Origin: a virus
Lineage: Duplodnaviria > Heunggongvirae > Uroviricota > Caudoviricetes
Length of the DNA stretch: 64,000 nucleotides
Virus record (IMG/VR): IMGVR_UViG_3300005095_000172
Span: 1 to 64,000 of that record
Direction: 5' to 3' (one strand)
The notes under the pieces are model-generated. The model was not told where the DNA came from and made no database searches. It saw nothing but the letters and a program-made list of their open reading frames with translations. Positions 503-62,218 of the stretch are shown here, piece after piece. The first letter of the stretch is position 1, and each line of letters begins with the position of its first letter. A program made the translations under genes and the position numbers.

Positions 503-1720
503 TCACTTATTCTCTCCTTTGTAAGAATTAATGTATTCAATAGCATCGAATTCATTCAAAGTCGGTACAAGGAAAGTTTTCATCATGTTCATGAAAACTT
601 TCTCAGGGATAAATTTCCCTTCTTGTAGAAGTCGCTGATTATTTCTGAAATCCAGTGATGACTCACCAACGATGAATATTTTTGAAACTTTGAAATATTC
701 TTTAGGTAGATTATTAATCCACTTTCCTCTTGACTTTTTAGACATATTAGTCATGTCAATTACTATATTTTCTCTATTTTGAACTGCTTTTCGGAATTCG
801 TCTCTGACATAAGTGTCAATCACTTTCTGATCGTTATCATCTAACTGACTCCAAATTTCAGAATAAGAACCTTCAATTTTGTATTTTTTAGCGTATCTCA
901 TCAGCATATCGTCTCTTGATATTACTTTGAATTCACCTTTTTTATTATTAATGTATGTGGTCTTTCCAGAACAAGGTAAGCCAACCAAAATTTCAATGTA
1001 AGGATTTTCAGTTGAATTTCTTCCAGTTATGAATTCTGCTTTAAAGTACTTTTTAAAAGTTTCTTCTCCATATAAAGTACTACCAAGTTCAGGACCAGTG
1101 TCTCCTCTTGAACCAGCTCCTTTTTTATAGAATCTACCAAGTGAATCATTTCTACTTTGCTTAACAAAGTTCTTATAATGCTCATATTGTGGAAACATTT
1201 TAACAATTTCTTCTGGCTTGAATTCTTTCCCGTCTTTAATTCTATTGAAAAGAACACTGTGTAGAGAAATTATTTTAAGAATCTGGTTCATCTCACATTC
1301 ATCGATCACATTCATCGCAACCAATTCAGAAAGAGGGTCGATGGCTTTCCAAAACGAGACTCCATCGTGTCCTCTAAAATGTACCTTTTCCTTAGCTGAA
1401 GTTTCGATATTTGGCCCATTTCTTTCTTCACCATTAAATGAAGGTTTCTTTTCTCCGGCTGGGATTACTCCTCTGGCTGCAGGTTTTCCAACATCATGAA
1501 GTAATGCAGATAATTTTACGATTTTATTGTCGTTTCTTGCTTCTTGGCAAACCATCATAGTGTGTGCCCAAACAGAACCCTCAAGGTGATATGGATTTGG
1601 TTCCGTAGTTTTTACAGCATGGTCAGAGTCTTTCATAGCATCGGCTAATTCTTTAAAGTTCACTTGGAACCAAAAAATCAACTCTTCCATTGTAGGGTTA
1701 TTTTTATCTATAAATTCCAC
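503..1720 (-). CDS. HD-domain phosphohydrolase fused to a Pnk-like P-loop polynucleotide 5'-kinase (RNA/DNA end-healing enzyme)
   Basis: N-terminal 'HTMMV..LLHDVGK' HD motif. C-terminal 'LVGLPCSGKTTYI' Walker A plus 'ISRDDM' matches the T4 Pnk kinase domain ('GCPGSGKST..NRDDY'). GTG start. A promoter element lies upstream. Confidence 0.7.
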   Translation of the reverse strand: MEFIDKNNPTMEELIFWFQVNFKELADAMKDSDHAVKTTEPNPYHLEGSVWAHTMMVCQEARNDNKIVKLSALLHDVGKPAARGVIPAGEKKPSFNGEERNGPNIETSAKEKVHFRGHDGVSFWKAIDPLSELVAMNVIDECEMNQILKIISLHSVLFNRIKDGKEFKPEEIVKMFPQYEHYKNFVKQSRNDSLGRFYKKGAGSRGDTGPELGSTLYGEETFKKYFKAEFITGRNSTENPYIEILVGLPCSGKTTYINNKKGEFKVISRDDMLMRYAKKYKIEGSYSEIWSQLDDNDQKVIDTYVRDEFRKAVQNRENIVIDMTNMSKKSRGKWINNLPKEYFKVSKIFIVGESSLDFRNNQRLLQEGKFIPEKVFMNMMKTFLVPTLNEFDAIEYINSYKGENK

Positions 1721-5750: not shown

Positions 5751-6866
5751 TTATTCAATTTCGCCCAACAACTTTCTAGCTTGTTCTAGTTTAGAAGTTT
5801 CTTTGATAATTCTTTCCTTAATCATCTTCTCCATTTTTTCTGGAGAACTAGGATAGTCATAAAGACACTTCATAACAATACCAAAGTCTTGAGTTTTTGA
5901 ATGCTCAATAGCGAAAGATTTTCTATCGTTAAAATCAAAGAACTTGTTTCTAAGTTCAACGGCTTTTTGAACTCTATGGTTATAGTATTTTTCAATTTTC
6001 TCGATAATTCCCTCAATTCTTACTCTTTCTTCAGAACCTTGCTCAAGTTCAGCTAAAACATCATCAATTTCTTCATTTAGTATCAAGTCAATCAATGTGT
6101 TTTCCTTACTAAGATCATCTAGAAGACCGTGTCTTTCAATGTACCAATCTGTTTTTACTTTGATGAATTGACCGTCTTTGAATTTTACTACATATCCTTC
6201 AATATTTTCTTCAGAAGCCTTTCTCTCAATAATTTCATCTAAAGTCAAATCAAATGTTTCGGCAGCAGGAATTGACATTTCTTTCGCAAACTTTTTTACA
6301 TCATCTGTAGAATAGTATTCACCAGTTTCTTTATCCCGAACTTGAAGTAATCTAAGTTCAGTTCTTTCATAAGTTAGGACAATCTTATTTCTTGGAGAAA
6401 CCAATTCAAAAAGAAAAACTTTATCTAAATTGGCATCTAAGACATCTTGAATAAAACTTGTGAAAAGAATAGTACTAACCATTTTTGTTTGGTCATTGTC
6501 AAATGACATCTTTGTCTTTGGAACAAATTTTCCATTAGGTAGTCTAACGAATGAAATTAATGAACCATCTTCTTTGAAAGAAACTGAGTCAATTTCTTTA
6601 TCTTTCACGACTCCATATTGTACTGTTTCACCTTGGTTCAGGTTCAGGAACTTTGTCAACATAGGAGTTCTTTCCCAAACATCTTCATTTTTAAGGAAAG
6701 TTAAACCCCTCAATTCCCACGCATCATTTTCAATGAAGTCATTTTCAAACGCTAATCTGTAATTGAACAAAGCGTATTCGTACCCTTGGACAGTACCACT
6801 TTGAACATAAAATGCCTCTGAATTTTCGGTAATTTTAAGTGCTTCTTCATAAGTAGGTAATTTCAT
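5751..6866 (-). CDS. rnlA: RNA ligase 1 (T4 RnlA family)
   Basis: Nucleotidyltransferase motif I 'FKEDGSLIS' is identical in pattern to T4 Rnl1 'TKEDGSLVS'. N-terminal 'ELRGLTFL'/'FLNLNQGE' resemble T4 'ECRGIMFE'/'FFNLNENP'. Confidence 0.8.
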   Translation of the reverse strand: MKLPTYEEALKITENSEAFYVQSGTVQGYEYALFNYRLAFENDFIENDAWELRGLTFLKNEDVWERTPMLTKFLNLNQGETVQYGVVKDKEIDSVSFKEDGSLISFVRLPNGKFVPKTKMSFDNDQTKMVSTILFTSFIQDVLDANLDKVFLFELVSPRNKIVLTYERTELRLLQVRDKETGEYYSTDDVKKFAKEMSIPAAETFDLTLDEIIERKASEENIEGYVVKFKDGQFIKVKTDWYIERHGLLDDLSKENTLIDLILNEEIDDVLAELEQGSEERVRIEGIIEKIEKYYNHRVQKAVELRNKFFDFNDRKSFAIEHSKTQDFGIVMKCLYDYPSSPEKMEKMIKERIIKETSKLEQARKLLGEIE

Positions 6867-7827: not shown

Positions 7828-8991
7828 TTAGTTTTCTTTGAGTAACTCTAATCCTCTTCTAAGGATGTTTAGAGCAGCATTTATATCTCTATCTTCTTCA
7901 AAACCACAATGTTCACAATTATATATGCGTTCTGATAATTTCAGTTCATCTTTAACACAACCACACCTTGAACATGTCTTTGAAGAAGGATAGAATGTTT
8001 CTATTTGTACTACACTAACTTGGTTTTCGTTAGCTTTGTATAGAAGTTTGGTGACTAAATCACCCCAAGCAACATCTTGTATCGCTTTAGAAAGTCTTCT
8101 ATTTTTCATCATGTTCTTAACTTGAAGACTTTCTAAAGCAATGAAATCATAAATATTCACGAGTTTTCTTGTAATTTTATGGTTTCTATCATCTCTTTGA
8201 TTTTTGATTTTACGGTGTATCTTTTGTACTTTCTTCTTAGATTTTATTCTATTCTTAGAACCTTTCTTTCTTCTTGAAAGTTCTTTCTGAGCTTGTTTAA
8301 GCTTCTTAGAACTTTTATGAGTAAGTTTAGAATTCCCTATTTTCTCTCCATTAGAAGTTATCACTATGTCTTTTATCCCTAGATCAATACCAACTGGTTT
8401 ACTTTGTCCTTTGACTTTGAAAGAAGATATTTCAACTTTGAAAGTAATTGAGATAAAATATAAATCTCCTTCTTTAACGATTGTATAACCAGTAACTTTC
8501 TCTGGTAAATCCCAATTAGTCTTGTGTTTTTTGAATTTAATTAAATGGTCTTCTTTCGAATAAGGAGATGACTTTCCTTTTGGAATGACTATCTTGTTAT
8601 CATTGAATTTAACTCTTAACCCAGCATACATATTAATACTCTGAGTCATATTCTTCCTTGATTTGAATTTAGGATACCCACCATTTCTATAGAACCCTTG
8701 GAATCCTTTATAAAGGTTAGCTAATGAAGCTTGTAAGTAGTCATTAGCTGAACGATACAGAAAAGAGTGAGTTTGTTTAAGTTCTGTTAGAGATTTTCCT
8801 AATTGAGTTTGATTAGGGATATTTGGATAATCTTCGTTTTTAGAATAATGGCCAAATTTGAAATCTTTTATTTCTGATAAGATTTGGTTATAAACAAATC
8901 TTTGTTGACCGAATAATTCATATAGTAGAGCTTTTTGTTTAGCTGAAGGAAGGAGTCTATATTTATTAGTTCTGATGATACTTCTTGACAT
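7828..8991 (-). CDS. tnpB: TnpB (IS605/IS607 OrfB; RuvC-like RNA-guided nuclease family)
   Basis: C-terminal 'CSRCGCV...YNCEHCGFEEDRDINAALNI' RuvC-III/zinc-finger signature, typical length, basic K/R-rich central region. Confidence 0.85.
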   Translation of the reverse strand: MSRSIIRTNKYRLLPSAKQKALLYELFGQQRFVYNQILSEIKDFKFGHYSKNEDYPNIPNQTQLGKSLTELKQTHSFLYRSANDYLQASLANLYKGFQGFYRNGGYPKFKSRKNMTQSINMYAGLRVKFNDNKIVIPKGKSSPYSKEDHLIKFKKHKTNWDLPEKVTGYTIVKEGDLYFISITFKVEISSFKVKGQSKPVGIDLGIKDIVITSNGEKIGNSKLTHKSSKKLKQAQKELSRRKKGSKNRIKSKKKVQKIHRKIKNQRDDRNHKITRKLVNIYDFIALESLQVKNMMKNRRLSKAIQDVAWGDLVTKLLYKANENQVSVVQIETFYPSSKTCSRCGCVKDELKLSERIYNCEHCGFEEDRDINAALNILRRGLELLKEN

Positions 8992-9032
8992 AAACCCTCC
9001 TTATTTTAACTTATTATAGTTATTTAATACTC

Positions 9033-9623
9033 TTAAGTAGATTTTAGAAGAGTTTCTGTAGATTTTAATATTTTTCTTCTATTACTATACATTTTCATAC
9101 TAAAATGATGAATGATAGAAATTAAATCTTCAGTTAATTCTTGTTGAAAATCTTCTTCTTTAGAAGAATTCAACACAACTATTTCTACTCCAAACATTTC
9201 AAAGAAAGTTTCAAAATACCCAAACCCAAATCTCGTAAGTCTGTCTTTATATGAAATGTAAATTTTTGAAATTTTACCATCTTGTATATCTTTTAGTAGA
9301 GAATTCAACCCCTTTCTATTTTCATTCATGCCAGAAGCTATGTCGCTATATACATTTTCTGGAACAACTCCAGTACTAACCATGAATTCTCTAATTATCT
9401 TTTCTTGTCTGATTAAATCGTCTTTTTGTTTCGTGTTTGAAACTCTCGTGTATATCACACATTGTCTTTCTTTTTGTTCTTTTTCAGTGAAAACGTCTTC
9501 ATACATGAATTTCCTAGAAGATAATTCGATGTATTTTACTTTACCGTTTCTTCTCCAATTATTCAGAGTCTGAGTGGTTATTTTGTACTTTTCTTTCATT
9601 TCTTTAGCTGATAGATAACCCAT
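9033..9623 (-). CDS. tnpA: IS607-type TnpA serine recombinase (MerR-like HTH + resolvase catalytic domain)
   Basis: 'VIYTRVSNTKQKDDL' catalytic-Ser motif; N-terminal HTH 'ITTQTLNNWRRNGK'; lies immediately upstream of tnpB. Confidence 0.8.
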   Translation of the reverse strand: MGYLSAKEMKEKYKITTQTLNNWRRNGKVKYIELSSRKFMYEDVFTEKEQKERQCVIYTRVSNTKQKDDLIRQEKIIREFMVSTGVVPENVYSDIASGMNENRKGLNSLLKDIQDGKISKIYISYKDRLTRFGFGYFETFFEMFGVEIVVLNSSKEEDFQQELTEDLISIIHHFSMKMYSNRRKILKSTETLLKST

Positions 9624-13596: not shown

Positions 13597-13928
13597 TACG
13601 AATCCAACATTTTAGAAAGTAGAACTTCAGATGAACCACTACCTTGTTCAATCGCACCAGCGATTGCGAGTTTCATTCCTAAATCGTCCTTTCTCATATC
13701 AAGATGTTTAGAAAGATAGTTATAAAGTTCCTTTGAATCTTTAAGATTTTCAATTCCAGTTAGTTCTGATAAAATCAATCTAGAAGTCATATTCATCGAA
13801 GCTACCATTCCGAATAAAAGAGCAGAGTCAAGAAAAGAAACATCAGCACTTTTTGTTTCGAATTTTTCTTTATTCAAATTCTCCATCATTTCCATTAGTT
13901 CATAGTAATCTATGTATTCAGTTTTCAT
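13596..13928 (-). CDS. hypothetical protein
   Basis: ORF track. Confidence 0.45.
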   Translation of the reverse strand: MKTEYIDYYELMEMMENLNKEKFETKSADVSFLDSALLFGMVASMNMTSRLILSELTGIENLKDSKELYNYLSKHLDMRKDDLGMKLAIAGAIEQGSGSSEVLLSKMLDS

Positions 13929-14298
13929 TATTTTCCTTTACTATTCCCAAAAGGTTATCTATTGTATTAACTAGGTCTTCAACATAAACATCATTCTTAG
14001 AAGATATCGTTTTCTTAAGTTCAACATCATCGCCATTTAGAAGTTTATCCTTAACTTTCTTAGTAATATTTCTTTTCTTATAAACTTCAATGTCATAAAG
14101 ATCATTCCCGTTTAGAGAAATTTTCACATATCCAATTCCTTTAAAAGCAGGAACATTCCTAACGGAAAACTGTAAAGCACCAAGTTCCTTTTCTGTTTCT
14201 GGGAATCCTAAGAAGTCTTTCGCTCCCCAAGAAATTAGTGCAAGTTTGTCCAAAACTTTAATTTGATATTGGATAGTTTTTGCTACTTCTATTGACAC
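13918..14298 (-). CDS. hypothetical protein
   Basis: ORF track; promoter element upstream. Confidence 0.45.
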   Translation of the reverse strand: MSIEVAKTIQYQIKVLDKLALISWGAKDFLGFPETEKELGALQFSVRNVPAFKGIGYVKISLNGNDLYDIEVYKKRNITKKVKDKLLNGDDVELKKTISSKNDVYVEDLVNTIDNLLGIVKENNEN

Positions 14299-14303
14299 GT
14301 TGT

Positions 14304-14346
14304 CTCCTTTTGTTATGTTTAATTATAGCTAAAGATAGCTTAAAAG
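14304..14346 (-). promoter_or_regulatory. promoter element copy
   Basis: 'aattatagctaaagatagcttaaaag'. Confidence 0.45.
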
Positions 14347-17897: not shown

Positions 17898-18118
17898 TTT
17901 TGTGGTTTTAAAGTTTTAGGATTGATATAGACTGATAATCTTCTTTTCCCGTAAAGGTAAACCACATTTTCAATGCAAATCTTTCTATACCAAAAACCTT
18001 GATGTGGTCGTTCAATACTTCTTGTTTTAGAAAAATCCTCATTACTTTCTGTGAGTTCGCACCCACTAAAACTCAAAGAAATAATGATCCCTATCATAGC
18101 CATTGAAATCTTTTTCAT
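17879..18118 (-). CDS. small lipoprotein
   Basis: Signal/lipobox 'ISLSFSGC'. Confidence 0.4.
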   Translation of the reverse strand: MKKISMAMIGIIISLSFSGCELTESNEDFSKTRSIERPHQGFWYRKICIENVVYLYGKRRLSVYINPKTLKPQNCEERK

Positions 18119-18855
18119 TTTTTATTCCTTTGGTGTTTTCCGCAAGAACACCAACCTTTTTCAATTAGTGCCCAAAAATTTCTACCGTCCATCAAGTGTT
18201 TAAATTCACAAAAGTCACTTCTGATATCTCTGGCATTAGCATCAATGTGTATATCACTTCTATCAACAAATTCAACTTCTTTCATCTTAAATCCATTATA
18301 ATCAAATATTATAGTATAGAACTCATTAAAGTATTCTCGTTCATTACAGTAGAAATAGTCATATCTATCTTCTTCTTTATTGTAATAGTAAAGAGTAACC
18401 TCATCCAAAGTATTAGCTATTTTAAGTACTGAGTCTTCTATTTCTTTGAACCAAATGTCCCAATCTTCATTATCGTGAGAATGTACGAAGAAACACTCAC
18501 TTGGATAAACTTGCCTTATAAGTTCAATTCTTTCGTTAAAGCTTAGAGGGTTCTTTTCTGGACATTCACCATTGTCATCTCCAAGTACAACAATAGGTAC
18601 TTTCCCATCAAGAAGAATCTCATTAATGATGTGTTGGTGACCAAAGTGGAATGGTTGAAACCTTCCTATAACCATTCCGTATTCTACATTTCTCGGTTTT
18701 ACCTCTGATGTTACGGCAAATTCAAGGTAATTCATTTCATACTTCGGATACATATTTTGAAGAGAAGAATACAACACGCTTTCATCTACATTCCCGTGAA
18801 GTTCTTTCAGTACCCTGAAATCATTCCTAATTTTGTTTATTGTATAAGTAGTCAT
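18115..18855 (-). CDS. nicotinamide-mononucleotide adenylyltransferase (NadM/NatV-type NMNAT) with a C-terminal extension
   Basis: 'GMVIGRFQPFHFGHQHII' (H/T)xGH nucleotidyltransferase motif characteristic of NMNATs; adjacent to nadV. Confidence 0.65.
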   Translation of the reverse strand: MTTYTINKIRNDFRVLKELHGNVDESVLYSSLQNMYPKYEMNYLEFAVTSEVKPRNVEYGMVIGRFQPFHFGHQHIINEILLDGKVPIVVLGDDNGECPEKNPLSFNERIELIRQVYPSECFFVHSHDNEDWDIWFKEIEDSVLKIANTLDEVTLYYYNKEEDRYDYFYCNEREYFNEFYTIIFDYNGFKMKEVEFVDRSDIHIDANARDIRSDFCEFKHLMDGRNFWALIEKGWCSCGKHQRNKK

Positions 18856-18879
18856 TGTCTCTTCCCTTTCAGAGATGCC

Positions 18880-20319
18880 TTATCTTGACATCTCTCTTAC
18901 TGCTGTAAGTGTAGTAAGTTTCACTTCCCCATTTTCATAGATTGTTTCTAGGCAATCTTGAATTACTCTATCATCGACTTTCAAGTATCTATCATCAGTG
19001 AAATATTCATCAGTTTCTTTGTTGTACCAAAGTGTCAGTTCACCTTTTTTAGACTTTTTGTTCGGGGCGGTAATAGGGTCTTTGAACACATCTCTTTGTA
19101 CAAGGTATGGCTCCCAGACACTATTTCCTTCACCGTCTTCGATAGGACTTCCTTCATCTACGATAATACTTGAACATTTAAGAGCCCAACCTTGGGTGTC
19201 TCTATTATGAGATTGCATCAACCAACCACCAGAACCAAAGGCGATATTAGAAGAAGCGTAACCTCTTTCTTTAAGAACTTCAAGCATTTCTTTGATAGTT
19301 TCTTCATTAATACCATCACCCCAGATAATTCCGTACTTAGTAAACTCTTTATAACCTTTAGAATTAATTGTGAATTTAACTTCATTCTTTTCCATAATAT
19401 CAAGAGTTTTATTAATCACTTCTACTGGATTTCCTGAGTCTGGTCGAATAACAAACTTAGGGTACTCTTCACTTTCAATCTTTTCTTTGAACTCACCTGA
19501 TGTTACAGCATCAACCGTTTTAAAGTAATTGTAAGAATCACAAACTGCTGCTACAATAACTGAAGTTTTGTTGACTTCAATGTGGTTCATAATTATCTTG
19601 AGTTCATTTTCTTTAAGCCAAGATGTAGTCGTACTGTGCTCCGTAGCAGGGATTGAGTACCCAGCGTCTTCTTCATCATAGAATTCAAATGCGTATCTAA
19701 GAGAATTGAAGTTATCAGTTCCCATAAACTGTGTTAGATGAGCTACACCACCAATCCCTGCTGATTCCACTGAACTCGAACCTCTGTCTCCGAAGTTGTG
19801 GAACTGGAACTGTACGTCAAATACATCATCTGATGAAGTTTCCTTCCAGTACTTTTCAAGAAGTTCTCTGATATAGTAGCTTCTTGTGGCAATATTTGAT
19901 GTGTACCAAACCTTAAGGAAAAGAGTTTCAAGGAAACCTGCTACCCAAGGAACTTTCTCATCTGTTGATTCAATGCTGAATAGAATATTTCCAGTAGGAA
20001 TTACAGAACCTTCTTTAACAGCTCTGATTTTTACTGGAATATACCCGTTGTATTCATTTACAATATACTCCCAACCTTCTTTATTGAAAGGGATACCGTG
20101 CCCAGAAGCAAATTTTTCTGCTTGGTTTACATCATCCATTGTTACTGGATTCATAAGGTACTTCAAGATAAAGTACTGAATTCCAAAGAAAACCGTTTTT
20201 GGATATACTTTACCGCTTCTTGCTTCTGCGTACACAAACATTTGCTTCATATTTTCTGGGTATTGTTTCCAGTGACTGTATTTGTAAGAGTCACTCAACA
20301 TAATTACATTTTCTTTCAT
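18880..20319 (-). CDS. nadV: nicotinamide phosphoribosyltransferase (NadV/NAMPT)
   Basis: 479 aa; N-terminal 'SDSYKYSHWKQYP' and overall NAMPT-like sequence. Confidence 0.8.
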   Translation of the reverse strand: MKENVIMLSDSYKYSHWKQYPENMKQMFVYAEARSGKVYPKTVFFGIQYFILKYLMNPVTMDDVNQAEKFASGHGIPFNKEGWEYIVNEYNGYIPVKIRAVKEGSVIPTGNILFSIESTDEKVPWVAGFLETLFLKVWYTSNIATRSYYIRELLEKYWKETSSDDVFDVQFQFHNFGDRGSSSVESAGIGGVAHLTQFMGTDNFNSLRYAFEFYDEEDAGYSIPATEHSTTTSWLKENELKIIMNHIEVNKTSVIVAAVCDSYNYFKTVDAVTSGEFKEKIESEEYPKFVIRPDSGNPVEVINKTLDIMEKNEVKFTINSKGYKEFTKYGIIWGDGINEETIKEMLEVLKERGYASSNIAFGSGGWLMQSHNRDTQGWALKCSSIIVDEGSPIEDGEGNSVWEPYLVQRDVFKDPITAPNKKSKKGELTLWYNKETDEYFTDDRYLKVDDRVIQDCLETIYENGEVKLTTLTAVREMSR

Positions 20320-26630: not shown

Positions 26631-27491
26631 TTAAATTTTATATTCACTACAACTTTCTGACATATTCATAGTTTCTTTCTTCTTATAGCAAAATACAGTA
26701 GAAGGACTCATGTCTTCAGCAAACTTACAAGTACTGCAAGAATTTAAGTTTTTGAAAATGAATCTTTTCAAAAACTCTTCATAATTCATAAATTCACATC
26801 CCTTATATGAATAAGTTGGGTATGTCCACATATAACACCAATTATAAGCGTCATCATTATCGAAAACAGTATATTTTGGTAACTTAAGAATCCCTGCATT
26901 TACTCTTCTATGGCTATCTACCAAAGTATTTTCTGCATCCTCCTCACTTAATTTTCTCATTTCAGTGCCACCATAACAAATTTTCATGACTAATTTAATT
27001 TTACCCGCTGTATCACAACCAGTAACTGCCAATCCTCTAATATTAGAATTATTTCCATGATCATAGAATTCAGTTACAAATTCCTCAAAAGTGATCTCTC
27101 TACAATTTTCTAAATTATAAGGGAAACTCCAGAAACCGTATCCTTCTCCATTATCAAAAAGAATGTATTCTGATGGTCTCATGATAGAATTTTGATCTTC
27201 AAGCATCTTCTCTGAGAACATTTCGTGTATTTCCATTCTAAGAACTTTCATTACAAATTCATATTTGTATCTATCATCTATGCCTTTGATAGCAAGATTT
27301 CTTTTAGACATATCTTCTTCAACCATACCGGAGTAAATCACAAACTCCTTTCCATCTTTCATTTTCACCCAATAAAAATCATTATCTAAAGAAAATGGGG
27401 AGACACAAAACTCTTCTCCTTTATACTTTTCAATAAGTTTAATTGGTAAAGTTGTGATAAAATCACCAGAATTGGTTCTGTCTTTGACCAT
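26631..27491 (-). CDS. hypothetical protein
   Basis: ORF track. Confidence 0.45.
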   Translation of the reverse strand: MVKDRTNSGDFITTLPIKLIEKYKGEEFCVSPFSLDNDFYWVKMKDGKEFVIYSGMVEEDMSKRNLAIKGIDDRYKYEFVMKVLRMEIHEMFSEKMLEDQNSIMRPSEYILFDNGEGYGFWSFPYNLENCREITFEEFVTEFYDHGNNSNIRGLAVTGCDTAGKIKLVMKICYGGTEMRKLSEEDAENTLVDSHRRVNAGILKLPKYTVFDNDDAYNWCYMWTYPTYSYKGCEFMNYEEFLKRFIFKNLNSCSTCKFAEDMSPSTVFCYKKKETMNMSESCSEYKI

Positions 27492-27542: not shown

Positions 27543-28410
27543 TCAACTTTCAAGATATTTACCCTCCACTATATTTTCAACTTCTTTAAAATCAGCTTTA
27601 TTAACAGTCACAACAGCGATTCTTGTTCTGGGTACCAATTCATTATATCTAAAAGTTTCTCCGTTCTTTTGGAACCGCCCTTCAGATTGAACAAGTACTT
27701 CTTCTCTCTTCACAAACCTACCGAATTTTTCTCCTGGAGTTGTTTCAGAGAACCAATCCTTACCAGTTTTATTTTTGCAATGTTCAATCTGTTCTTGAGA
27801 TGTTTTATTTTGCAGTTCTTTATGAGAACAATAAGTCTGGGCAAAAACATTTTTTGAATTCTTTTCGGGATCTCTTACTCTCCACAAAAATGAATTTACA
27901 ACTTCACTCTCATCCTCAACTCCATAAACTCTAGCATCAAAATAAGCTAAGTTGAGTTTGTGTCTAAACTTCTCCGTGAGTCCTTGAGCTTCAAGAACTT
28001 CTTTTAGTCCTTCATTGAACTTCACGGAACAGTACGCAGCAAAAAGTGAAGCAATCTTTTGAACCCTACCATTATAAATATGTTGGTAGTCCTTACGAAG
28101 TTCCTTCTCAAACCCAGTTTCCTCTTTCAACTCAACTTTCCTTAGCTGAGTAAGAGAAGGGATATAAAGTGTGATCTCGTCACTCTGAGTGTAACCAGTG
28201 TAAGCGTTGAATTCCTCCACTAACTTCACCGTACAATAATTCATAGCAGCAATAAGCACTCTATCAAAAGGCTTTCAAATCCCTTAGTGAATTTTGAAAT
28301 CCATGACCGTCTAACCTAACGATGATATGGTTATCTACAGGAACTCTTTTTTCGTATTGTGCTTCATATCCCTTTAATCTATCACCAAGAGCTGGGCTTG
28401 TATCTTTCAT
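27543..28410 (-). CDS. Thg1-like protein (tRNA-His guanylyltransferase / 3'-5' nucleotidyltransferase family), interrupted by a +1 frame change at UUU_UGA
   Basis: N-terminal 48-aa ORF (28264-28410) 'VPVDNHIIVRLDGHGF' matches Thg1 'VVRIDGKKFH'. The downstream ORF (27543-28259, GTG start) 'QSDEITLYI', 'AYFDARV', 'FLWRVRD' matches Thg1 'ESDEYSFIL', 'PSFDGRV', 'YLRWRQ'. Confidence 0.55.
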
Positions 28411-40850: not shown

Positions 40851-41855
40851 TCATTTCTTCAATTTTAACTTAAGAATTCCTTTTGAACCAGAGTACACGT
40901 TAGAAGCTATGATATACGCAAAACTCTTTCCACAGTTGTTCTTCAGCCATTCGTTAGCGTCCTTTTCTTTAATTTCTCTTGGCCAGATAAAGACTTTGTG
41001 TCCCTTTTCCAGTAATTCAAGTGATTTCTCTCTAGAAGTATTGTCTTTGAATTGATTATCGAAACAAAAAATTACGTCTTTTACTTCAGATATCCTTTCT
41101 TCATTCAAGTCAGCACCAAGTGCAGCACAAATTCTATCTCTTGGAAGACCTGAACTCAACGCATCAAAGACAGATTCGAATAGGAAAACCGATTTATCTC
41201 TATCTATAGAGAACCAATTCCAAACCTTATACCCTGAATTTTCTTCTGGGATATAAGTATAAAATCTCTTATCTTTAATTGCTCTAGCTTGAAATCCATA
41301 AACTTTGTTGTCTTTTTCTTTATACCAAAGGGGAATTACGATAGAATCTCGTATAGGTAAGTATTTCTCATCTATTTTAATGTCTTCCTTTGAATAAAAA
41401 ATCCCTTCTTCATCTATACAACGTCCATTTAGGTACTTCTTTGCTTCTTCTGAACTTTCTGCCTTTATGAATTTTTCTGGGAATTCAAAGGTGCTTACCA
41501 CTTTCTTCTTATAAGAATAATCTATATCTGGAGAAATGAGTTCGTCTTTATTTTGAAATTTGTTTTTGAGAGAGTTGAAACTCGTTTCTCTTTTTTCCTT
41601 TCTGTATTGTTCAAATAGGACAGAATTGACTTCTTTTAGAAATGTGTACATACTTCCAGAGAAACTACAATTGAAACAATGAACGACATCATTTTCATAA
41701 GAAGATTTTCTATAAAGATGAAGACGTTTTTGTCTTTCATCTTTCTGAGAGTCTCCGCAAATTATACATTTTGCAGAGATATCATTTTCACTTTCTTTGC
41801 CAATGTCTGATCCAACAGCAAATTTGAAATATTTTACATTTATTGGATCTAACAC
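40851..41855 (-). CDS. DNA primase (T4 gp61-like: zinc ribbon + TOPRIM)
   Basis: 'CIICGDSQKDERQKRLHLY...VHCFNCSFSG' zinc-binding domain; TOPRIM-like 'VFLFESVFDALS'; lies in a replication gene neighbourhood. Confidence 0.65.
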   Translation of the reverse strand: MLDPINVKYFKFAVGSDIGKESENDISAKCIICGDSQKDERQKRLHLYRKSSYENDVVHCFNCSFSGSMYTFLKEVNSVLFEQYRKEKRETSFNSLKNKFQNKDELISPDIDYSYKKKVVSTFEFPEKFIKAESSEEAKKYLNGRCIDEEGIFYSKEDIKIDEKYLPIRDSIVIPLWYKEKDNKVYGFQARAIKDKRFYTYIPEENSGYKVWNWFSIDRDKSVFLFESVFDALSSGLPRDRICAALGADLNEERISEVKDVIFCFDNQFKDNTSREKSLELLEKGHKVFIWPREIKEKDANEWLKNNCGKSFAYIIASNVYSGSKGILKLKLKK

Positions 41856-41864
41856 AATTGAACC

Positions 41865-42242
41865 TTATTCTGAATTTTCCTCTGGTGCATCGTCGTCATT
41901 AACACCCATTTCTTCTCTTGCCTCTTGAACTACTTTATCAACAGTTTTAGCGAATTCTAGGAATTTTTCAAGTCCAAGTTCATTGAAAATAGCTTCTACA
42001 AGTTCAGAAACCTTTTCATATGTTTTTTCATTTTTTATTGTCAATACAGTAACCAACATCCCGATATCAAAATTCTGAATTTCTAGTAGAAGATTATAGA
42101 CAGCTTGTCTTAGTTCACTTTCTTGTTCTTCATCAACACCTTCGATTTCTAGTGCGTCAACTACTTCTTTCAAATCTTCTAGTTCGTGGTTAAAAATCAA
42201 TTTCATCATTATTCCTTTTAAAAATATGCTTTGAATACCCAA
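41865..42242 (-). CDS. acidic hypothetical protein
   Basis: ORF track. Confidence 0.4.
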   Translation of the reverse strand: MGIQSIFLKGIMMKLIFNHELEDLKEVVDALEIEGVDEEQESELRQAVYNLLLEIQNFDIGMLVTVLTIKNEKTYEKVSELVEAIFNELGLEKFLEFAKTVDKVVQEAREEMGVNDDDAPEENSE

Positions 42243-42445
42243 ATATCCATTCCATTTTCAAATACAGAAGCTTTGCAATTTATTCCAAGTTTTTCACACT
42301 CTTCTCTGAACTTCTGTATCACCTCTTTATCTTCAATCACCTTAATTACAATGAAATAATCACTGCCTTGGGGAGAGTATGGGTTAGAATCAATAACTCC
42401 AGCATTTTTAAGTGCTTTCTTGAAATTAGAAAGTATCATACCCAT
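42218..42445 (-). CDS. hypothetical protein
   Basis: ORF track. Confidence 0.35.
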   Translation of the reverse strand: MGMILSNFKKALKNAGVIDSNPYSPQGSDYFIVIKVIEDKEVIQKFREECEKLGINCKASVFENGMDIWVFKAYF

Positions 42446-46069: not shown

Positions 46070-47170
46070 TTATCCCTCTTCGATATTCACTTCTAATTCT
46101 TTTATCGGGTATCCGTGTTCAAGATATTCATTCAGTCTTTCATAGCTATGTTTCAATACATAATTTTTATTCGTAACTCTTCCAGTTTTTGTTTTTGTAC
46201 TGAAATCATCAATGAAGTCAAAATACCTCATCATATCCTTTTCTTTATGAAGTCTCATTCCTCTTCCGATTGACTGATTAAGTCTAATACTAGATTTAGT
46301 ACTGGCGGCACTGAAGAAATTGTGTAACCTCTTAATGTTCAACCCAGTCGAAACTGTCTGGGCACTTCCAATGATAATCCCGTCTTCTACATTTTCCAAT
46401 AATGCTCTTACTTCATTTCTTGTTTCTCCCTCAATAGAACCTTTAATTAGGTATATATGAAAATCACTAAGAACTCTGATTTTTCTAATGTCATCATCTG
46501 AAAAATGTTTAGACAGATTTCGTTTATCTTTATCTGTCAGTTCCGTAAGAACAAAAAGTTCTTCTGTAGAATTTATTTTTTCTTTTGCTTCCAGTACTCT
46601 CTTAGGAGTAACCTTTTCAAGGATAATAGGTTCTGGGATATTGAATTTATTTGCGAGTATAAGTTTAAGTAATAAATCACCGTGAGATATAGAGTTATAC
46701 ATAACCATAGAGTTCCCGTATTTTTCTGTGGCTTGAATAACCATCTTAGCTATGAAATTATTCCTTGGGATATGTTCTTCTATAAATTTAGTTTCCTTTT
46801 GGTAATTTTTCAAAGCTTTTACTTTTTTCTTATCAGCATCAGAATAGTTCAAGTACACCGTGACAATAGTTACAGGAGTTGCTAACCCTCTTTCAATCAA
46901 TCCTTGAGGAGTAATGATTTTCTTGGATTTACCTAAAGTGGCTGAAAGCGTGAATCTCCCTTCGTAAGTCTTCGGCAAAGTTCCCGTTAGGCCAATCTTA
47001 TAAAGACAATTTCTGGATGCGTTCAGAAGCTTAGTGAGTGACTCTCCTGTTGCGAGATGACAATTAGATACATTTAGTCCATTAGCAAAATAATTATGAT
47101 TATCTTCAACATGGAGATTATAGGTATCACCTTCGTAATGACATGGTTCAATTGAAACTATTTTTGACAT
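46070..47170 (-). CDS. uvsW: UvsW helicase C-terminal fragment preceded by a 36-aa split-intein C-half (IntC)
   Basis: It starts 'MSKIVSIEPCHYEGDTYNLHVEDNHNYFANGLNVSN|CHLATGESL', with its own GGAGG RBS. The IntC block (47063-47170) parallels Npu DnaE IntC. The extein 'CHLATGESLTKLL..CLYKIGLTGTL' matches T4 UvsW 'ECHLATGKSISSII..CMFKFGLSGSL'. Confidence 0.8.
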   Translation of the reverse strand: MSKIVSIEPCHYEGDTYNLHVEDNHNYFANGLNVSNCHLATGESLTKLLNASRNCLYKIGLTGTLPKTYEGRFTLSATLGKSKKIITPQGLIERGLATPVTIVTVYLNYSDADKKKVKALKNYQKETKFIEEHIPRNNFIAKMVIQATEKYGNSMVMYNSISHGDLLLKLILANKFNIPEPIILEKVTPKRVLEAKEKINSTEELFVLTELTDKDKRNLSKHFSDDDIRKIRVLSDFHIYLIKGSIEGETRNEVRALLENVEDGIIIGSAQTVSTGLNIKRLHNFFSAASTKSSIRLNQSIGRGMRLHKEKDMMRYFDFIDDFSTKTKTGRVTNKNYVLKHSYERLNEYLEHGYPIKELEVNIEEG

Positions 47171-47314
47171 ATATATTCCTCCATGGACAAAATCATTTTT
47201 CCTAATGAATTTTTATACCACCTTTTCAATATAGTTTTATTTTCTTTAGAAAATATAGTAATCTTTAAGCTTGTTTTTGAATAGAATGTGATTTGGAAAA
47301 ATTCACCAATTTTC

Positions 47315-47773
47315 TTAAATTCTTCTACTAAAAGAATTAATCGTTCGTTCAATTTTTCTTCTTGTATCCCCATCAATTGACTCCTTCATATTGTAATATT
47401 TTTCTTCAATTTTCCAGATATTCTCATAGAACCAATCGTCATCTATGAAAACATATTCATATCCGTGCGTCTCACACCATTGTTTAGCGAATTTCTCCTT
47501 TACCTTTACTACTTCGTCGCTCATTTCAGATTTAGGTTTAATTTCATAGAGTATTTTTCCAATTTCATCTTCAAAATCTATTATATATGTATGTGAAACC
47601 CCATTATATGAGTACGGGATTCTTGTTTTTTCATACATAAGTGATGGGTTTATCATGAAAAATAAAGCTTCCCAGGAACTCCTGAGAGCAACACCATTCA
47701 CATAACATCGTGATTTAGAATATGAATTCGTGATACAAGGAGTCCACTCACCGTTAGCTATTTTTGTTTTCAT
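47315..47773 (-). CDS. putative PD-(D/E)xK nuclease (candidate homing endonuclease) between the split-intein halves
   Basis: 'HTYIIDFEDEIGKILYEIKP' D...E-x-K signature; sits inside the fractured uvsW locus. Confidence 0.4.
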   Translation of the reverse strand: MKTKIANGEWTPCITNSYSKSRCYVNGVALRSSWEALFFMINPSLMYEKTRIPYSYNGVSHTYIIDFEDEIGKILYEIKPKSEMSDEVVKVKEKFAKQWCETHGYEYVFIDDDWFYENIWKIEEKYYNMKESIDGDTRRKIERTINSFSRRI

Positions 47774-47930
47774 GTATATAGATTGTCTCTCTGCTTTTTC
47801 TTGAGGTCTTCTTTATTCATGGTATGATTTGGATTATTTTCAGTTATGTATTTAGAGTGAAGAGCGTTCTCACATTTTTTATTACAAGTTTTCCTATACG
47901 CACCATATCCATATAAACTGGAGTCTCTCT

Positions 47931-48401
47931 TTAATCTTTTTTGACAAAATGCACAGTTTTCGAGTGGGAAAAATAATCTAATATTTCAGTATTAGTCATT
48001 TCATAAAATTCAGTATGTTCTAGACCAAATTTCAAAAACATTTTCATGTATTTATTTTTTCCTCTAAGCTCCGTACTTTCGTGAAGTTTTGAGTTAGAAT
48101 ACTGTAAAGCAATAATTTCATCTTCTATATTACTTCTTTCAATGGGATATATAACTCTTCCATTTTCATCCCAAATAGCATAATTTAAATCTATATCTGT
48201 AATGTCAAATAAAACTGCAAACTTGAAGAAATAGAAGTTGATATGGTTTTCGTTAATTTTTCCTAAATCTTTTCTAAGGTAAGTTATCTTACCTTTGATC
48301 TTTGATCTTACTGCTTTTGTGTATGGGGTTTTAGTGAGGAAGAGTTTAAGTTCAGTTAGAGAACTAATTCTTTCTATTTCTTTAAATATATTTCTTTTCA
48401 T
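47931..48401 (-). CDS. hypothetical protein between the split-intein halves (possible partner of the nuclease)
   Basis: ATG with GGAG RBS; no recognisable motif. Confidence 0.4.
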   Translation of the reverse strand: MKRNIFKEIERISSLTELKLFLTKTPYTKAVRSKIKGKITYLRKDLGKINENHINFYFFKFAVLFDITDIDLNYAIWDENGRVIYPIERSNIEDEIIALQYSNSKLHESTELRGKNKYMKMFLKFGLEHTEFYEMTNTEILDYFSHSKTVHFVKKD

Positions 48402-48446
48402 CTCATTCTCCGAGTAAAATTTAAGCCATGGCTTGCCTCTATTTAA

Positions 48447-49430
48447 TCAACTTACACTTAAAATGTCATCCCCAACTAATAATTCATCAACTCTTACCCA
48501 ACCCCTTTTTGTGTTTACTTTATGGTTTCCAGTGATAATAAGTTCTTTCCCGTCCTCAGTCTTTAGCTTATACGTCTGTTCTTTTGGAAGATTCTTGTGT
48601 ACTTTTCTTACCTTTTTGTATTCATATTCACCAGAGTTTTCATTTATCGTCAATACTTCTTCACCAACTGAAATCTCACTTATTTTTTTCACCCCATCTT
48701 TTGTCAGTATTGGTGTGTTTGGATGTAAACATTCATCAACTATTACATAATCTAATTGGTCATAGTCGGACTCTTTCATAAGTATTCCCGACTGCCATGT
48801 AGTGACAACCATAGGCTTACTAAATGATTTTTCTTTCCCAGCAAATATCGTGTGAAGCTTTTTATCTGCATCTTCTTCACTCATCCCATAACTAAGGAAA
48901 TCTGAACGCATCTGTTCGGCTAATCCGACATTCGGAACTATCAGTAAACCTTTCTTTCCGTGTCTTTCGAAGAATGACATGATAAGAAAAACAATCAAAC
49001 TTTTTCCTGCCCCAGTAGCCGCTACGATTATTCTTCGTGGATGCTTGAGTACTTCCCTTAATGCGTCAACTTGATAATCATATGGTTCAAATGGGAGATT
49101 TAGTGATTTAATATGTTCTTGGATATCTGCTTCTGAGAAAAATTCTGGTTCAGTCTTAGGAGTGTAAGGTTCGTCTAAGTGGTCTTTATATCTAAGTGAA
49201 ATTGTTTCAGCTAACCCTTTTGGTATTTGCATAGATAAGTCAGATAACACCTTGAAATAGTATTTCTTACCGTCCCATATACCAGATCTGTATTTTGGTG
49301 AAAACTTATACCCATCCACAAAAACACTCAAGTCATCCATTAATTTAGTTCTTAGAACTAAAGCTTCTTCTTCTGAATGAGAATCGAAAGTTATAATAGA
49401 AAAACTTTCATCTTTATCAAAAATCTTCAT
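48447..49430 (-). CDS. uvsW: UvsW helicase N-terminal fragment followed by a 94-aa split-intein N-half (IntN)
   Basis: N-terminus 'DGYKFSPKYRSGIWDGK' matches T4 UvsW 'DGYRFNPRFRYGNWDGR'. Walker A 'ATGAGKS'. 'VIVDE|CLHPNTPILTKDG...ITGNHKVNT...' are intein blocks A/B. The ORF ends at a stop after IntN (48450-48731). Confidence 0.8.
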   Translation of the reverse strand: MKIFDKDESFSIITFDSHSEEEALVLRTKLMDDLSVFVDGYKFSPKYRSGIWDGKKYYFKVLSDLSMQIPKGLAETISLRYKDHLDEPYTPKTEPEFFSEADIQEHIKSLNLPFEPYDYQVDALREVLKHPRRIIVAATGAGKSLIVFLIMSFFERHGKKGLLIVPNVGLAEQMRSDFLSYGMSEEDADKKLHTIFAGKEKSFSKPMVVTTWQSGILMKESDYDQLDYVIVDECLHPNTPILTKDGVKKISEISVGEEVLTINENSGEYEYKKVRKVHKNLPKEQTYKLKTEDGKELIITGNHKVNTKRGWVRVDELLVGDDILSVS

Positions 49431-52805: not shown

Positions 52806-53861
52806 TCATAACCCAGCTTCTTTATCTAGCCTTTCCATGAACCATTTTCTTGCGATAGTTGAAATGTGTTTATTCACATCTTTTGGTTCAAGACCTCTTT
52901 CTACAAGGACGTCCATTTCTTCTTTCATAACATCGGAAACAACCGCCTTAAGGAACTCTCCTGTTCTCTTAACATCACCCTTTCCACCATTGAGAACATC
53001 GAATGTCTCATTGTACATTTGTTCTAGTCTCCAAGATGGAGTAGCGTAATTAGCAAAGTCAATTTTCTTTTGTTCAAGCTCACTATCCACTTTACTTAGT
53101 TTTTTCACTTTTGAATTAGAATGCTTATCCCCCTTACTCTTAAAGGAAAATCTATTTCCGTCGAACCAACCGACGAACACAATCCCTTCTCCGATACCTG
53201 AAACGCCAAATTTCTTAGCGACAGGACATTCATTTTCTACATATTCGGTGAGTTTCACAATTTCTTCTTGTGCTTTAGAAGGATTTTCAAAATCAATATC
53301 TACTTCGAATGTTTCAAAGTCAAAGATAGAAAAAATTCTAAGTTCAGGATTTTTTACTCTATTGAAAATTACTCTTGGATCCACAGCCCATCTATAATCT
53401 TCCTCATCTTTCATTTTGAATTTAATACCGAACATATAGAATGATTTGTCTAGTTCAGAAATACCGACCCCATTTTGAATTCCATTTCCAGCCCATTCTC
53501 CATAAATACATAATTCTTCAATTTCATCGCCTTTATACATATCATCAAAAACTTCATTCAGCATTGACTCAATGTAATCCCTAATACTTTCTACATAAAA
53601 GGCAAATCCTGCGTTGTCTTTGTCTACGGTGATTACATTTTTCTTAGACTGACACCACATTTCACGCTCTGAATTCATACAAATACTAGCGTTTGTTCCG
53701 TGGAGCTTCACTGTACCTACAAAAGTCACCGTAGGAAGGTCTTTAGAATGGTCATAAACAGCATTTCCGTCTTCATCCACACCTTTGTATCTCGCAACAT
53801 GAGATAGGTCTTTTACCACGTTTCTGAATTGAGCAATGCTCGGCATTTTGATTAGTTTCAT
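52806..53861 (-). CDS. RNA ligase, Rnl2-like (nucleotidyltransferase with KxHGxN motif I)
   Basis: 'VTFVGTVKLHGTNASI' versus T4 Rnl2 'WVAREKIHGTNFSL'. Confidence 0.6.
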   Translation of the reverse strand: MKLIKMPSIAQFRNVVKDLSHVARYKGVDEDGNAVYDHSKDLPTVTFVGTVKLHGTNASICMNSEREMWCQSKKNVITVDKDNAGFAFYVESIRDYIESMLNEVFDDMYKGDEIEELCIYGEWAGNGIQNGVGISELDKSFYMFGIKFKMKDEEDYRWAVDPRVIFNRVKNPELRIFSIFDFETFEVDIDFENPSKAQEEIVKLTEYVENECPVAKKFGVSGIGEGIVFVGWFDGNRFSFKSKGDKHSNSKVKKLSKVDSELEQKKIDFANYATPSWRLEQMYNETFDVLNGGKGDVKRTGEFLKAVVSDVMKEEMDVLVERGLEPKDVNKHISTIARKWFMERLDKEAGL

Positions 53862-57096: not shown

Positions 57097-57312
57097 CTAC
57101 TCTTTATTTTCCAATAATATAGCTTTCATTTCATCAGGAAGAAGTTCTTCTGGACCTTCTTCAGTGAACTTTAGAAAGATTTCATTTTCTAAAAACTTAG
57201 TTTTCCCATACAAGTTGTTTTCTAGGACTGTAGTATTAATGGGAAACTCTGGTTCCCCACATTCCATACTCACATACACTTCCCCATCAATAGTAATTTC
57301 ATAAATTTCCAT
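57097..57312 (-). CDS. hypothetical protein
   Basis: ORF track. Confidence 0.35.
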   Translation of the reverse strand: MEIYEITIDGEVYVSMECGEPEFPINTTVLENNLYGKTKFLENEIFLKFTEEGPEELLPDEMKAILLENKE

Positions 57313-59384
57313 TACTCAACCTCGATATTGAATTTTCTGAAACTAGATTGCTCAATAGAATAGATGAATTCATCAGAACCACTGATTGGTATAGTTAGGT
57401 TAAAATCAACTTCTGATAATTTACTTTTCTTTTGGCAAATATAAGCTAACACCAAAGAAGCATACTCATATAATAGGTTAGAACCGACAGGAACATGGTA
57501 TTTCTTAAAAATATTATTCACACCTTTGATGTTTTTACCGTAAGAAGGAATTCCTTCTGATATGATCAGTTCACTGTAAAAATCGACAAGTTCTTTAAAG
57601 AAATCGTGTGTATCATCCAAATCAGGGAAGACAATTTCATCATCAGCATTTAATCCAATTTTTTGATGGAGTTTATTTTCAAGAACTTGATACCCTTGAG
57701 CACCATTGAAATCATACAAGTGGAGGTTAGTAACGTGGTGGTTGTAAGAACCAAGAGACACTTCTGGGTCAATCTCGTCTTGGATAGATTGTAGAATCAT
57801 TTCTTGTAGGAATGTCCATTCAAAAATATTTATACTCCCCCAACCCCAAATTACATCACCTGACCGAGACTTAACATTCATATGTAGTCTTTTATCAGGA
57901 GTGACAAAAAAGTCCATGGCCATGTTGCAATTATGAACAATCCAACCACCAGATTTAAGAATAAAATTATGATTATCTTCAACGGTAATATCGAAAACGC
58001 CAACAGATTCTTCCACATATTCTACGCCTATGACCTTAATGAACCCCATTGAAGTGTCTGAATTTTCTTTAATTCTTCTTTCAAATACTTTATGGTCACC
58101 GATTCTATTTTTTAATTGGTGTTTGAAATTCTTCCAAGAACCAAATTTATCAACTATCCTTGTTAAAGAAGGAAATCCCATGGTACCAAGATTTTTATTT
58201 GCGTAATCATAAGAAAGAGTTTCCAATTCTTCTATTCTCTTTTCGAAGATGTCTAAAATTTCTTCTTTCGAAAGTCCTTTAAACATTAGCCCGTGAGAAT
58301 ATCCAGGATTTTGTCTATTGGCTTCGACTTTCTTTTCAATAACCTTCTTATTTCTGCTTGGATTATTTAGTAATTTATGAATTCTATTGTGTTCACTTTC
58401 TGTCAACAGCTCTAAATTTTCCTTAGAATTATCAAAATGATCTCCATTTTTATGATGAACAGTCATCCCTTCTGGAATTTCTCCATAAAAGTATTCAAAT
58501 GAATCTCTATGCCAAGAGGTCAAATTCGAGAATCTCTTATTTTCTCTTAAATTCTTTTTAATCAAACCACCGTTCTCATGAATTGGAGTCGAAAGTATAT
58601 AGTCACCTATTTCGATTTCAGATGCTTTTTTCTGTATTACGGTGTATGGTTGTCTGCTCCTTCCAACAAAAGAATATTCTTTCATATACATAGAATGATC
58701 TTCAGTAACACAAACCTCATCTCCGTTACTTAATGTGATCTTTAAGTATCTACTCACGTCTTTTGTTTTACCAGACCACTCAACTCTTTTTAGTTCCACG
58801 CATTCTGAACTTTCGTTATAAGAGTAAACCAAATCTTCAGTTGTTACTTCAGATATTCTTTTATACCCTGAGTTCGTGAGAATTTCTGTATGAGAAAGGA
58901 AACAAGGTTTGTCCAATGTTTTATCAAGCCCATACACATTCTCCAAACTTTCTTTAGTATCCAAGTTAGGGTCACCAATGTAAAGAGTAGCTCTTCTTGT
59001 ATAAATTCCTTCGTTTCTAAATTGTTCAATCACGTCATCTAATTGATTACCGTTCTTAATTCTTTCAGGATAACCTCCACGCCAATTTTTTCCGTCATCT
59101 GAAAAGTCTTTTGCTCTTGGTAAGAAAAACGATAGATAAGGGTCTATTCCATTGGACCCAGCGAATACCCAAAAAGTTTCTGCGATAGAAGCAAAAATAT
59201 TATTCTTTCTTCCATTCAGTGAAAGGTGTCTAGCCTTTGGATTTTCGATAGTAGAGAAGAAGTTATAGATAGTGTTGATGTCTCCATTCCTTGATTTTGT
59301 TCTATAACCATTGTAGATTAATTCTTCTAACGCTTTCAAGACAGCGTCGTTTATTGTCTTTCCTTCTATAAAGGTAGGCTTCAT
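57312..59384 (-). CDS. thymidylate synthase-family enzyme (ThyA or dNMP hydroxymethylase) carrying an HNH intein at the catalytic Cys
   Basis: Exteins 'IFASIAETFWVFAGSNG' and 'LDKP|C..NMAMDFFV..RSGDVIWGWGSINIFEWTFL' align to the TS 'ELLWF..G', 'PCHxxxQFYV', 'RSxDxxLGxPFN' regions. The intervening 325 aa have intein blocks. Confidence 0.8.
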   Translation of the reverse strand: MKPTFIEGKTINDAVLKALEELIYNGYRTKSRNGDINTIYNFFSTIENPKARHLSLNGRKNNIFASIAETFWVFAGSNGIDPYLSFFLPRAKDFSDDGKNWRGGYPERIKNGNQLDDVIEQFRNEGIYTRRATLYIGDPNLDTKESLENVYGLDKTLDKPCFLSHTEILTNSGYKRISEVTTEDLVYSYNESSECVELKRVEWSGKTKDVSRYLKITLSNGDEVCVTEDHSMYMKEYSFVGRSRQPYTVIQKKASEIEIGDYILSTPIHENGGLIKKNLRENKRFSNLTSWHRDSFEYFYGEIPEGMTVHHKNGDHFDNSKENLELLTESEHNRIHKLLNNPSRNKKVIEKKVEANRQNPGYSHGLMFKGLSKEEILDIFEKRIEELETLSYDYANKNLGTMGFPSLTRIVDKFGSWKNFKHQLKNRIGDHKVFERRIKENSDTSMGFIKVIGVEYVEESVGVFDITVEDNHNFILKSGGWIVHNCNMAMDFFVTPDKRLHMNVKSRSGDVIWGWGSINIFEWTFLQEMILQSIQDEIDPEVSLGSYNHHVTNLHLYDFNGAQGYQVLENKLHQKIGLNADDEIVFPDLDDTHDFFKELVDFYSELIISEGIPSYGKNIKGVNNIFKKYHVPVGSNLLYEYASLVLAYICQKKSKLSEVDFNLTIPISGSDEFIYSIEQSSFRKFNIEVE
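57930..58904 (-). mobile_element. intein (325 aa) with an HNH homing-endonuclease domain, inserted at the TS-family active-site Cys
   Basis: Begins 'CFLSHTEILT', block B 'TEDHSMY', HNH 'HHKNGDHFDN...EHNRIH', ends 'VEDNHNFILKSGGWIVHN' + C. Confidence 0.8.
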
Positions 59385-62206: not shown

Positions 62207-62218
62207 TAGAATCTCCTT

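Follow-up and report, generated by a model that had tools for sequence, protein, structure and literature searches.

The gene described here lies on the minus strand of the window (the whole 64,000-nucleotide stretch of viral DNA that was analysed), at 28410..27543, and has about 289 codons once repaired. No single uninterrupted ORF of approximately 240–300 codons is found at this location; its place is taken by two ORFs in different frames, 28416/28410..28264 and 28274..27543. The N-terminal fragment (28264..28410, minus strand) reads MKDTSPALGDRLKGYEAQYEKRVPVDNHIIVRLDGHGF in frame 0, continues into an out-of-frame tail, QNSLRDLKAF, and stops at TGA TAG. Its ORF opens at either ATG 28416 or ATG 28410 and closes at the TGA of 28266-28264, with the TAG directly after (...AGG GAT TTG AAA GCC TTT TGA TAG). 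ATG 28410 is the more likely start: AAGGA stands 6 nt before it, and it overlaps the preceding gene's stop as ATGA. The C-terminal fragment (27543..28274, minus strand) uses the +1 frame, open between 28274 and the stop at 27543, and reads KPFDRVLIAAMNYCTV...TQSDEITL...GRVQK...YFDARV...WRVRD...EGKYLES. The first possible starts within it are GTG 28259 and ATG 28244; the JGI gene call P0001 (233 aa, from the same contig of 140,623 bp) begins at the latter.

An earlier note had assigned both ORFs to Thg1, and this homology is borne out by profile and structure comparisons. Against Pfam PF04446 (Thg1), the N-terminal piece scores 21.9 bits (profile positions 2-30, residues 12-42), the C-terminal piece 63.5 bits (profile positions 39-127) and the joined protein 88.6 bits (positions 2-127 of 130), with a cut-off of 29.2. 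The motifs quoted at that time (VRxDGxxF, ESDE, SFDGRV and LRWR) were approximately right, the actual text being VRLDGHGF, TQSDEITL, YFDARV and FLWRVRD. The best match to a solved structure is BtTLP from Bacillus thuringiensis (4KGK, E = 1.8e-21, query residues 7-220); the alignment is gapless across the junction for the repaired protein, and the C-terminal fragment is aligned through residue 189. Eukaryotic Thg1 structures match far more weakly (Candida 3WBZ, E = 4.3e-8; yeast 5XOX, E = 8.1e-6), and the window protein is nearer in sequence to the bacterial TLPs than to the eukaryotic, G-1-adding Thg1.

The three catalytic carboxylates are present in invariant columns, in RLDG of the N-terminal fragment and in TQSDEITL of the C-terminal fragment; the catalytic carboxylates are D30, D75 and E76 in BtTLP and D29, D76 and E77 in the human protein (PMC3701042). 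In BtTLP, T38 stacks on the activating purine nucleotide and K43, the KP lysine, positions ATP for 5'-end activation (PMC3701042). The window protein shares with BtTLP (PDB 4KGK/4KGM) the R-x-D-G motif (R28/D30), the KP lysine (K43), S-D-E (S74/D75/E76), FD-R and WR-xD-xKNS. It differs in belonging to a metagenomic clade of proteins of about 290-300 residues, in which an insertion follows the SDE strand and the C-terminal region is different; identity between the two is low, and the window gene is out of frame. The activation segment, F-S-K-F/Y-T-K-G-x-x-K-P-x-D, is spread over three frames and becomes contiguous with the catalytic Asp only after two one-base repairs. The chemistry expected of a TLP is template-dependent 3'-5' nucleotide addition that repairs 5'-truncated tRNAs (PMC3701042, PMC4820378). 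Judged by these comparisons, the locus clearly holds an interrupted gene for a predicted Thg1-like 3'-5' nucleotidyltransferase of a T4-like phage.

The source is a distant T4-like phage; the window has a G+C content of 32.9%, and its gp32 is closest (39%) to those of Campylobacter phages. Rnl1, Rnl2 and a kinase had been named as companions of the TLP, and an Rnl1-like ligase (5751..6866), an Rnl2-like ligase (52806..53861) and a 405-aa P-loop kinase domain protein (503..1720) are all encoded in the window. No tRNA gene, tRNA-His included, was found in the 64 kb, and the literature that we found establishes no substrate for phage TLPs. By inference from the T4 Pnk/Rnl1 paradigm, an RNA repair toolkit would be a reasonable picture.

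Several other features of the window were observed. An IS607-like pair (7828..9623, minus strand) adjoins the Rnl1 gene; its members are a serine resolvase (9033..9623) and a TnpB/OrfB_IS605 protein (7828..8991) whose TNB domain is Cas12f-like. A NAD salvage pair (18115..20319, minus strand) encodes NAMPT (479 aa) and then a cytidylyltransferase-like, NMNAT-type protein (246 aa). The primase ORF (40851..42257, minus strand; Zn ribbon and Toprim, GTG start 41855) is in the same frame as the preceding 125-codon ORF, with one stop codon between them. The UvsW-type helicase is fractured (46070..49430, minus strand): the ORF at 48447..49430 carries UvsW_N, ResIII/DEAD and the N-terminal half of an intein, the ORF at 46070..47170 carries a C-terminal intein block and then Helicase_C, and separate ORFs lie between these parts, one of which (47315..47773) has a TnsA-like endonuclease domain. 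This locus has the look of a split intein whose halves are separated by a free-standing endonuclease gene. A 690-aa protein (57312..59384, minus strand) contains a complete intein (Intein_splicing, residues 168-485) that includes an HNH_3 endonuclease domain; the protein has no Pfam match outside the intein. Finally, a thymidine hypermodification cluster (60603..63843, minus strand) encodes GATase-like, amino-acid:DNA transferase/aGPT-pyrophosphorylase-like and 5-hmdU DNA kinase-like proteins and an amidoligase; the presence of this cluster suggests hypermodified T in the phage DNA.

The alignment with 26 homologues gives RIDGHKFSKFTKGFxKPFDxILSxAM as the consensus across the junction of the two TLP fragments, and the window sequence splits this consensus over three frames: RLDGHGF (frame 0), SKFTKGFE (-1) and KPFDRVL (+1). 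Frame 0 reads VRLDGHGF, then QNSLRDLKAF and two stops; the -1 frame reads ..W-I-SKFTKGFE-SLL..; the +1 frame reads KPFDRVLIAAM... directly after a stop. The S-K-F-T-K-G-F-E relic (28274..28297, minus strand), a conserved segment that can be read in the -1 frame only, includes the Thr equivalent to T38 of BtTLP. The first lesion (28296..28299, minus strand) is at GGA TTT^CAA, where one base is missing (probably TTTT reduced to TTT) and the family reading passes from frame 0 (..GHGF) to the -1 frame (SKF..). At the second (28273..28275, minus strand), GAA^AG CCT, one base is again missing (probably AAAA reduced to AAA), and the family reading passes from the -1 frame (..GFE) to the +1 frame (KPFD..). 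Restoring the frame takes one base after GGA TTT (28302-28297, giving TTT TCA) and one in GAA AG (28276-28272, giving GAA AAG). The homologous loci L001 and L005 have CAT AAA TTT TCT ... AAA CCT TTT GAT at the same places. The two lesions are about 23 nt apart, are both single-base losses in short A/T runs and are both located upstream of UUU_UGA (28264..28269, minus strand), the end of the frame-0 ORF and the site at which a +1 slip had been proposed.

A profile HMM was built from the 26 homologues and three reconstructions of the protein were scored. The two-site repair gave 340.0 bits, a join at AAA_G 313.1 bits and the +1 join at UUU_UGA 308.2 bits, so that the SKFTKGFE segment is worth 27-32 bits in this comparison. 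As a regular expression, the contiguous motif is found in 111 of 119 homologues and, with small deviations, in 6 more; it is thus uninterrupted in 117/119. Three homologues contain HKFSKFTKGFEKPFD, one residue from the repaired HGFSKFTKGFEKPFD. When all 119 homologues were realigned with it, the repaired protein matched the consensus at each of the 59 columns that are at least 90% conserved (59/59). The +1 product has QNSLRDLKAF in place of SKFTKGFEKPF, is one residue short and loses Ser39 (99% conserved), Thr42 (97%) and Pro48 (100%).

The geometry that the earlier note had described is confirmed: there are two consecutive ORFs with a short overlap and a UUU_UGA, and tRNA-Phe could re-pair at +1 on U UUU. 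One +1 shift does not explain the break, as a third (-1) frame holds SKFTKGFE and the +1 join scores 32 bits below the two-site repair. Nor does one extra T in the T4 tract, the other cause that had been suspected. The TTTT is wild type because it belongs to the conserved CCT TTT GAT (Pro-Phe-Asp), identical in the homologues, and the two losses lie upstream of it. The frameshift reading is therefore wrong in both mechanism and position, and the apparent prfB-like site is a by-product of the two upstream one-base losses.

The site was also compared with prfB itself. The prfB frameshift (CUU UGA C) depends on a Shine-Dalgarno-like element that precedes the shift codon by 3 nt. The window site (GCC UUU UGA U, 28272-28263, minus strand) resembles it in having a shift-prone P-site codon, a UGA next in frame 0 and perfect +1 re-pairing. 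It differs in having no Shine-Dalgarno-like stimulator 3 nt upstream, no conservation and no autoregulatory logic, and a single +1 shift in the window gene fails to restore the family sequence. The sole Shine-Dalgarno-like string is UAAGG, which ends 12 nt upstream and corresponds to the codons ACU AAG GGA in the ancestral frame; at the prfB spacing there is none. A stretch of 151 nt folds no better than its shuffles (z = 0.09). The UUU_UGA shift site is in no homologue among the 119 examined, and the collections searched hold no orthologue of more than 50% identity. We considered whether tRNA-Phe might nevertheless slip at GCC UUU UGA during the pause at the stop, by a leaky or programmed +1 frameshift, to give a full-length ...GHGFQNSLRDLKAF-DRVLIAAM... 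product. Perfect re-pairing, the stop in the A site and the open +1 frame are all real, and the product would keep the three catalytic carboxylates and, in register with FD, the Lys that corresponds to BtTLP K43. However, it would lack the invariant Pro and the near-invariant Ser and Thr, neither a stimulator at the 3-nt spacing nor a significant RNA structure is present, and the ancestral peptide is intact in the -1 frame. We regard this reading as improbable. A family-matching peptide that survives in a frame the +1 mechanism never reads argues against long-term use of the shift, and a programmed frameshift of the prfB kind, as an evolved feature, is rejected. A related scenario, slightly less probable again, is that the lesions are genuine and the accidental UUU_UGA lets some ribosomes slip to +1, so that some full-length, altered TLP would be made; if true, the case would be one of a programmed frameshift observed at its very origin, in a gene for tRNA repair.

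Other routes to a functional protein fare no better. A two-piece enzyme would consist of the 48-residue N-terminal peptide, with the first catalytic Asp, and of a C-terminal protein whose translation restarts at GTG 28259 or ATG 28244, the two being held together non-covalently. GTG 28259 sits 5 nt past the TGA stop, and translational re-initiation is conceivable there, but neither start has a Shine-Dalgarno sequence before it and no homologue is organised in this way. SKFTKGFEKPF, which contains the equivalents of the activation-site residues T38 and K43 (PMC3701042), would be missing from both pieces, and we consider the arrangement very improbable. Two successive -1 recoding events, ribosomal or transcriptional, would restore the ancestral protein and are the sole route by which SKFTKGFE is translated from the sequence as written. 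Yet there is no X XXY YYZ slippery heptamer at either lesion (A_TTT_CAA in frame 0, A_TTT_GAA in the -1 frame), a run of only 3 bases is much too short to make transcription slip, downstream structure is absent, and to our knowledge such a pair of events has no precedent; this reading is barely credible. All forms of functional rescue taken together are unlikely. Two further candidates were tried and rejected. A bypass of the T4 gene-60 type between the two GGATTT repeats would skip conserved residues, which the intervening bases encode, and its landing frame would be wrong. Reassignment of a stop codon is not consistent with a frame 0 that ends in TGA followed directly by TAG.

The best explanation is that an ordinary phage TLP gene of about 289 codons would have lost its reading frame through two independent deletions of one base each, both in short homopolymers: T4 became T3 at 28299-28297, and A4 became A3 at 28275-28273. 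Translation from ATG 28410 would then end after about 48 residues, the last 10 of them out of frame. The remaining 240 codons, the SDE metal-binding motif included, would have no in-frame upstream start, and no full-length enzyme would be made. As the rest of the gene is perfectly conserved, the damage would be very recent, possibly from one mutational episode. A second copy of the mutated stretch, as expected for a templated or ectopic origin, was sought in the window and none was found within 3 mismatches.

The same pattern could arise if the TLP gene of the phage, with its 289 codons, is intact and the consensus or assembly, locally poor at this point, is one base short in each of two homopolymers. 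Both lesions are single-base losses in A/T runs, on opposite strands, in a gene that is otherwise flawless (all 59 conserved columns kept), and the ancestral peptide is perfectly preserved in an unused frame. Two neutral indels normally come with substitutions at conserved sites, of which we see none, and two lesions within about 23 nt of an 870-nt gene have a chance of about 6% if they are independent. Both points count against a genuine lesion; the missing substitutions and the clustering fit a local consensus error equally well, the clustered pair being what a low-quality patch would leave. The thymidine hypermodification cluster might conceivably disturb sequencing of native DNA at T runs.

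Evidence from the remainder of the window points the other way. About 21.8 kb of other family-matched genes are unbroken and cover their profiles, including those for NAMPT, gp32, RNase H, primase, UvsY, Rnl1, Rnl2, TnpB, Band 7 and the 690-aa intein-containing protein. A survey of all minus-strand junctions shows gene starts adjoining the preceding stops, as is usual for a compact phage genome. Suspicious small or non-ATG minus-strand ORFs were compared with Pfam and PHROGs, which revealed no split gene, and a general frameshift problem was rejected for the window. Most of the non-ATG starts result from the way ORFs were defined or are true GTG starts; 13921..14322, for example, matches phrog_9437 over almost its full length. 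The A/T run-length spectrum is indistinguishable from that of the Sanger-era T4 reference (6-to-7 ratio 0.033 versus 0.037 in T4); the sharp drop from 6 to 7 occurs in T4 too, and homopolymer compression was rejected on this ground. Short-read assemblies do not typically err in runs as short as 3-4 bases, which counts against an artefact. Since the other genes are unbroken, the starts normal and the run spectrum T4-like, a general error process is argued against and real deletions are slightly favoured. Other metagenomic members of the family (L005; L001-L004) also carry real-looking lesions. We infer a recent and genuine loss, with the bases missing from the genome of the sampled phage and not merely from the consensus, and slightly prefer this reading while giving it no better than a nearly even chance; the consensus artefact is a serious contender, somewhat short of even.

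Phages are already known to carry TLP genes. Among 5.8 billion proteins searched, 298 homologues were found at E <= 1e-3, and all those listed carry PF04446; the only close match is P0001, which is the window protein itself, and the next best are metagenome proteins of 45-50% identity. By tblastn against phages, 161 phage records match, many of them annotated as Thg1 or tRNA-His guanylyltransferase, with a best identity of 35%. The annotated phage tRNA-His guanylyltransferase genes (jumbo/large phages of Vibrio, Caulobacter, Bacillus, Mycobacterium, Yersinia, Erwinia and Xanthomonas) are of the same family and, like the window gene, are found in large phages that have further genes for RNA repair or tRNAs; they differ in that identity to the window protein is at most 35% and the window phage belongs to a distant T4-like lineage. 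Near-identical relatives were sought: megablast against phages gave no match, and scans of viral and metagenome contigs for peptide patterns turned up no relative. No contig encoding exactly P0001 was found in the collections searched, and its cluster is a singleton.

The damaged metagenomic TLPs P0100 (in L001-L004) and P0116 (in L005) resemble the window gene in that the called proteins start at the same internal Met and the 5' part is disrupted, but their lesions are of other types and are not at the window's sites. In P0100, a poly-A tract right after the ATG is A10 (L001 and L003, 2825-2850) or A12 (equivalent positions of L002 and L004). Both lengths are out of frame with an otherwise intact Thg1 N-terminus, with which A11 would be in frame; the tract is either hypervariable or subject to transcriptional slippage, or reflects uncertainty of the assembler. 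P0116, from a hydrothermal vent metagenome, is a nonsense-mutated Thg1-like gene, with an in-frame TAA (L005:530-560) where its close relative P0051 has Tyr (RMKN*EKEY versus RMKRYEKEY). As neither P0100 nor P0116 has the window's lesions, the family shows no recurrent recoding site. A NUDIX hydrolase gene immediately follows the Thg1-like gene at L001:3761-4192 and L005:1330-1758; the gene downstream of the window TLP (26631..27491) has no Pfam match.

The window TLP matters little as it stands, being a divergent, damaged or mis-sequenced copy of a known phage gene, and its UUU_UGA site does not belong in a catalogue of recoding events. Once repaired, the sequence of 289 residues can serve to represent a metagenomic clade of phage TLPs. 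With a genuine lesion, the phage would at present have no working TLP and would retain its RNA ligase and kinase genes for repair. The occurrence of a TLP with Rnl1, Rnl2 and a kinase in one phage, by their predicted functions, supports the idea of multi-enzyme RNA repair kits in large phages.
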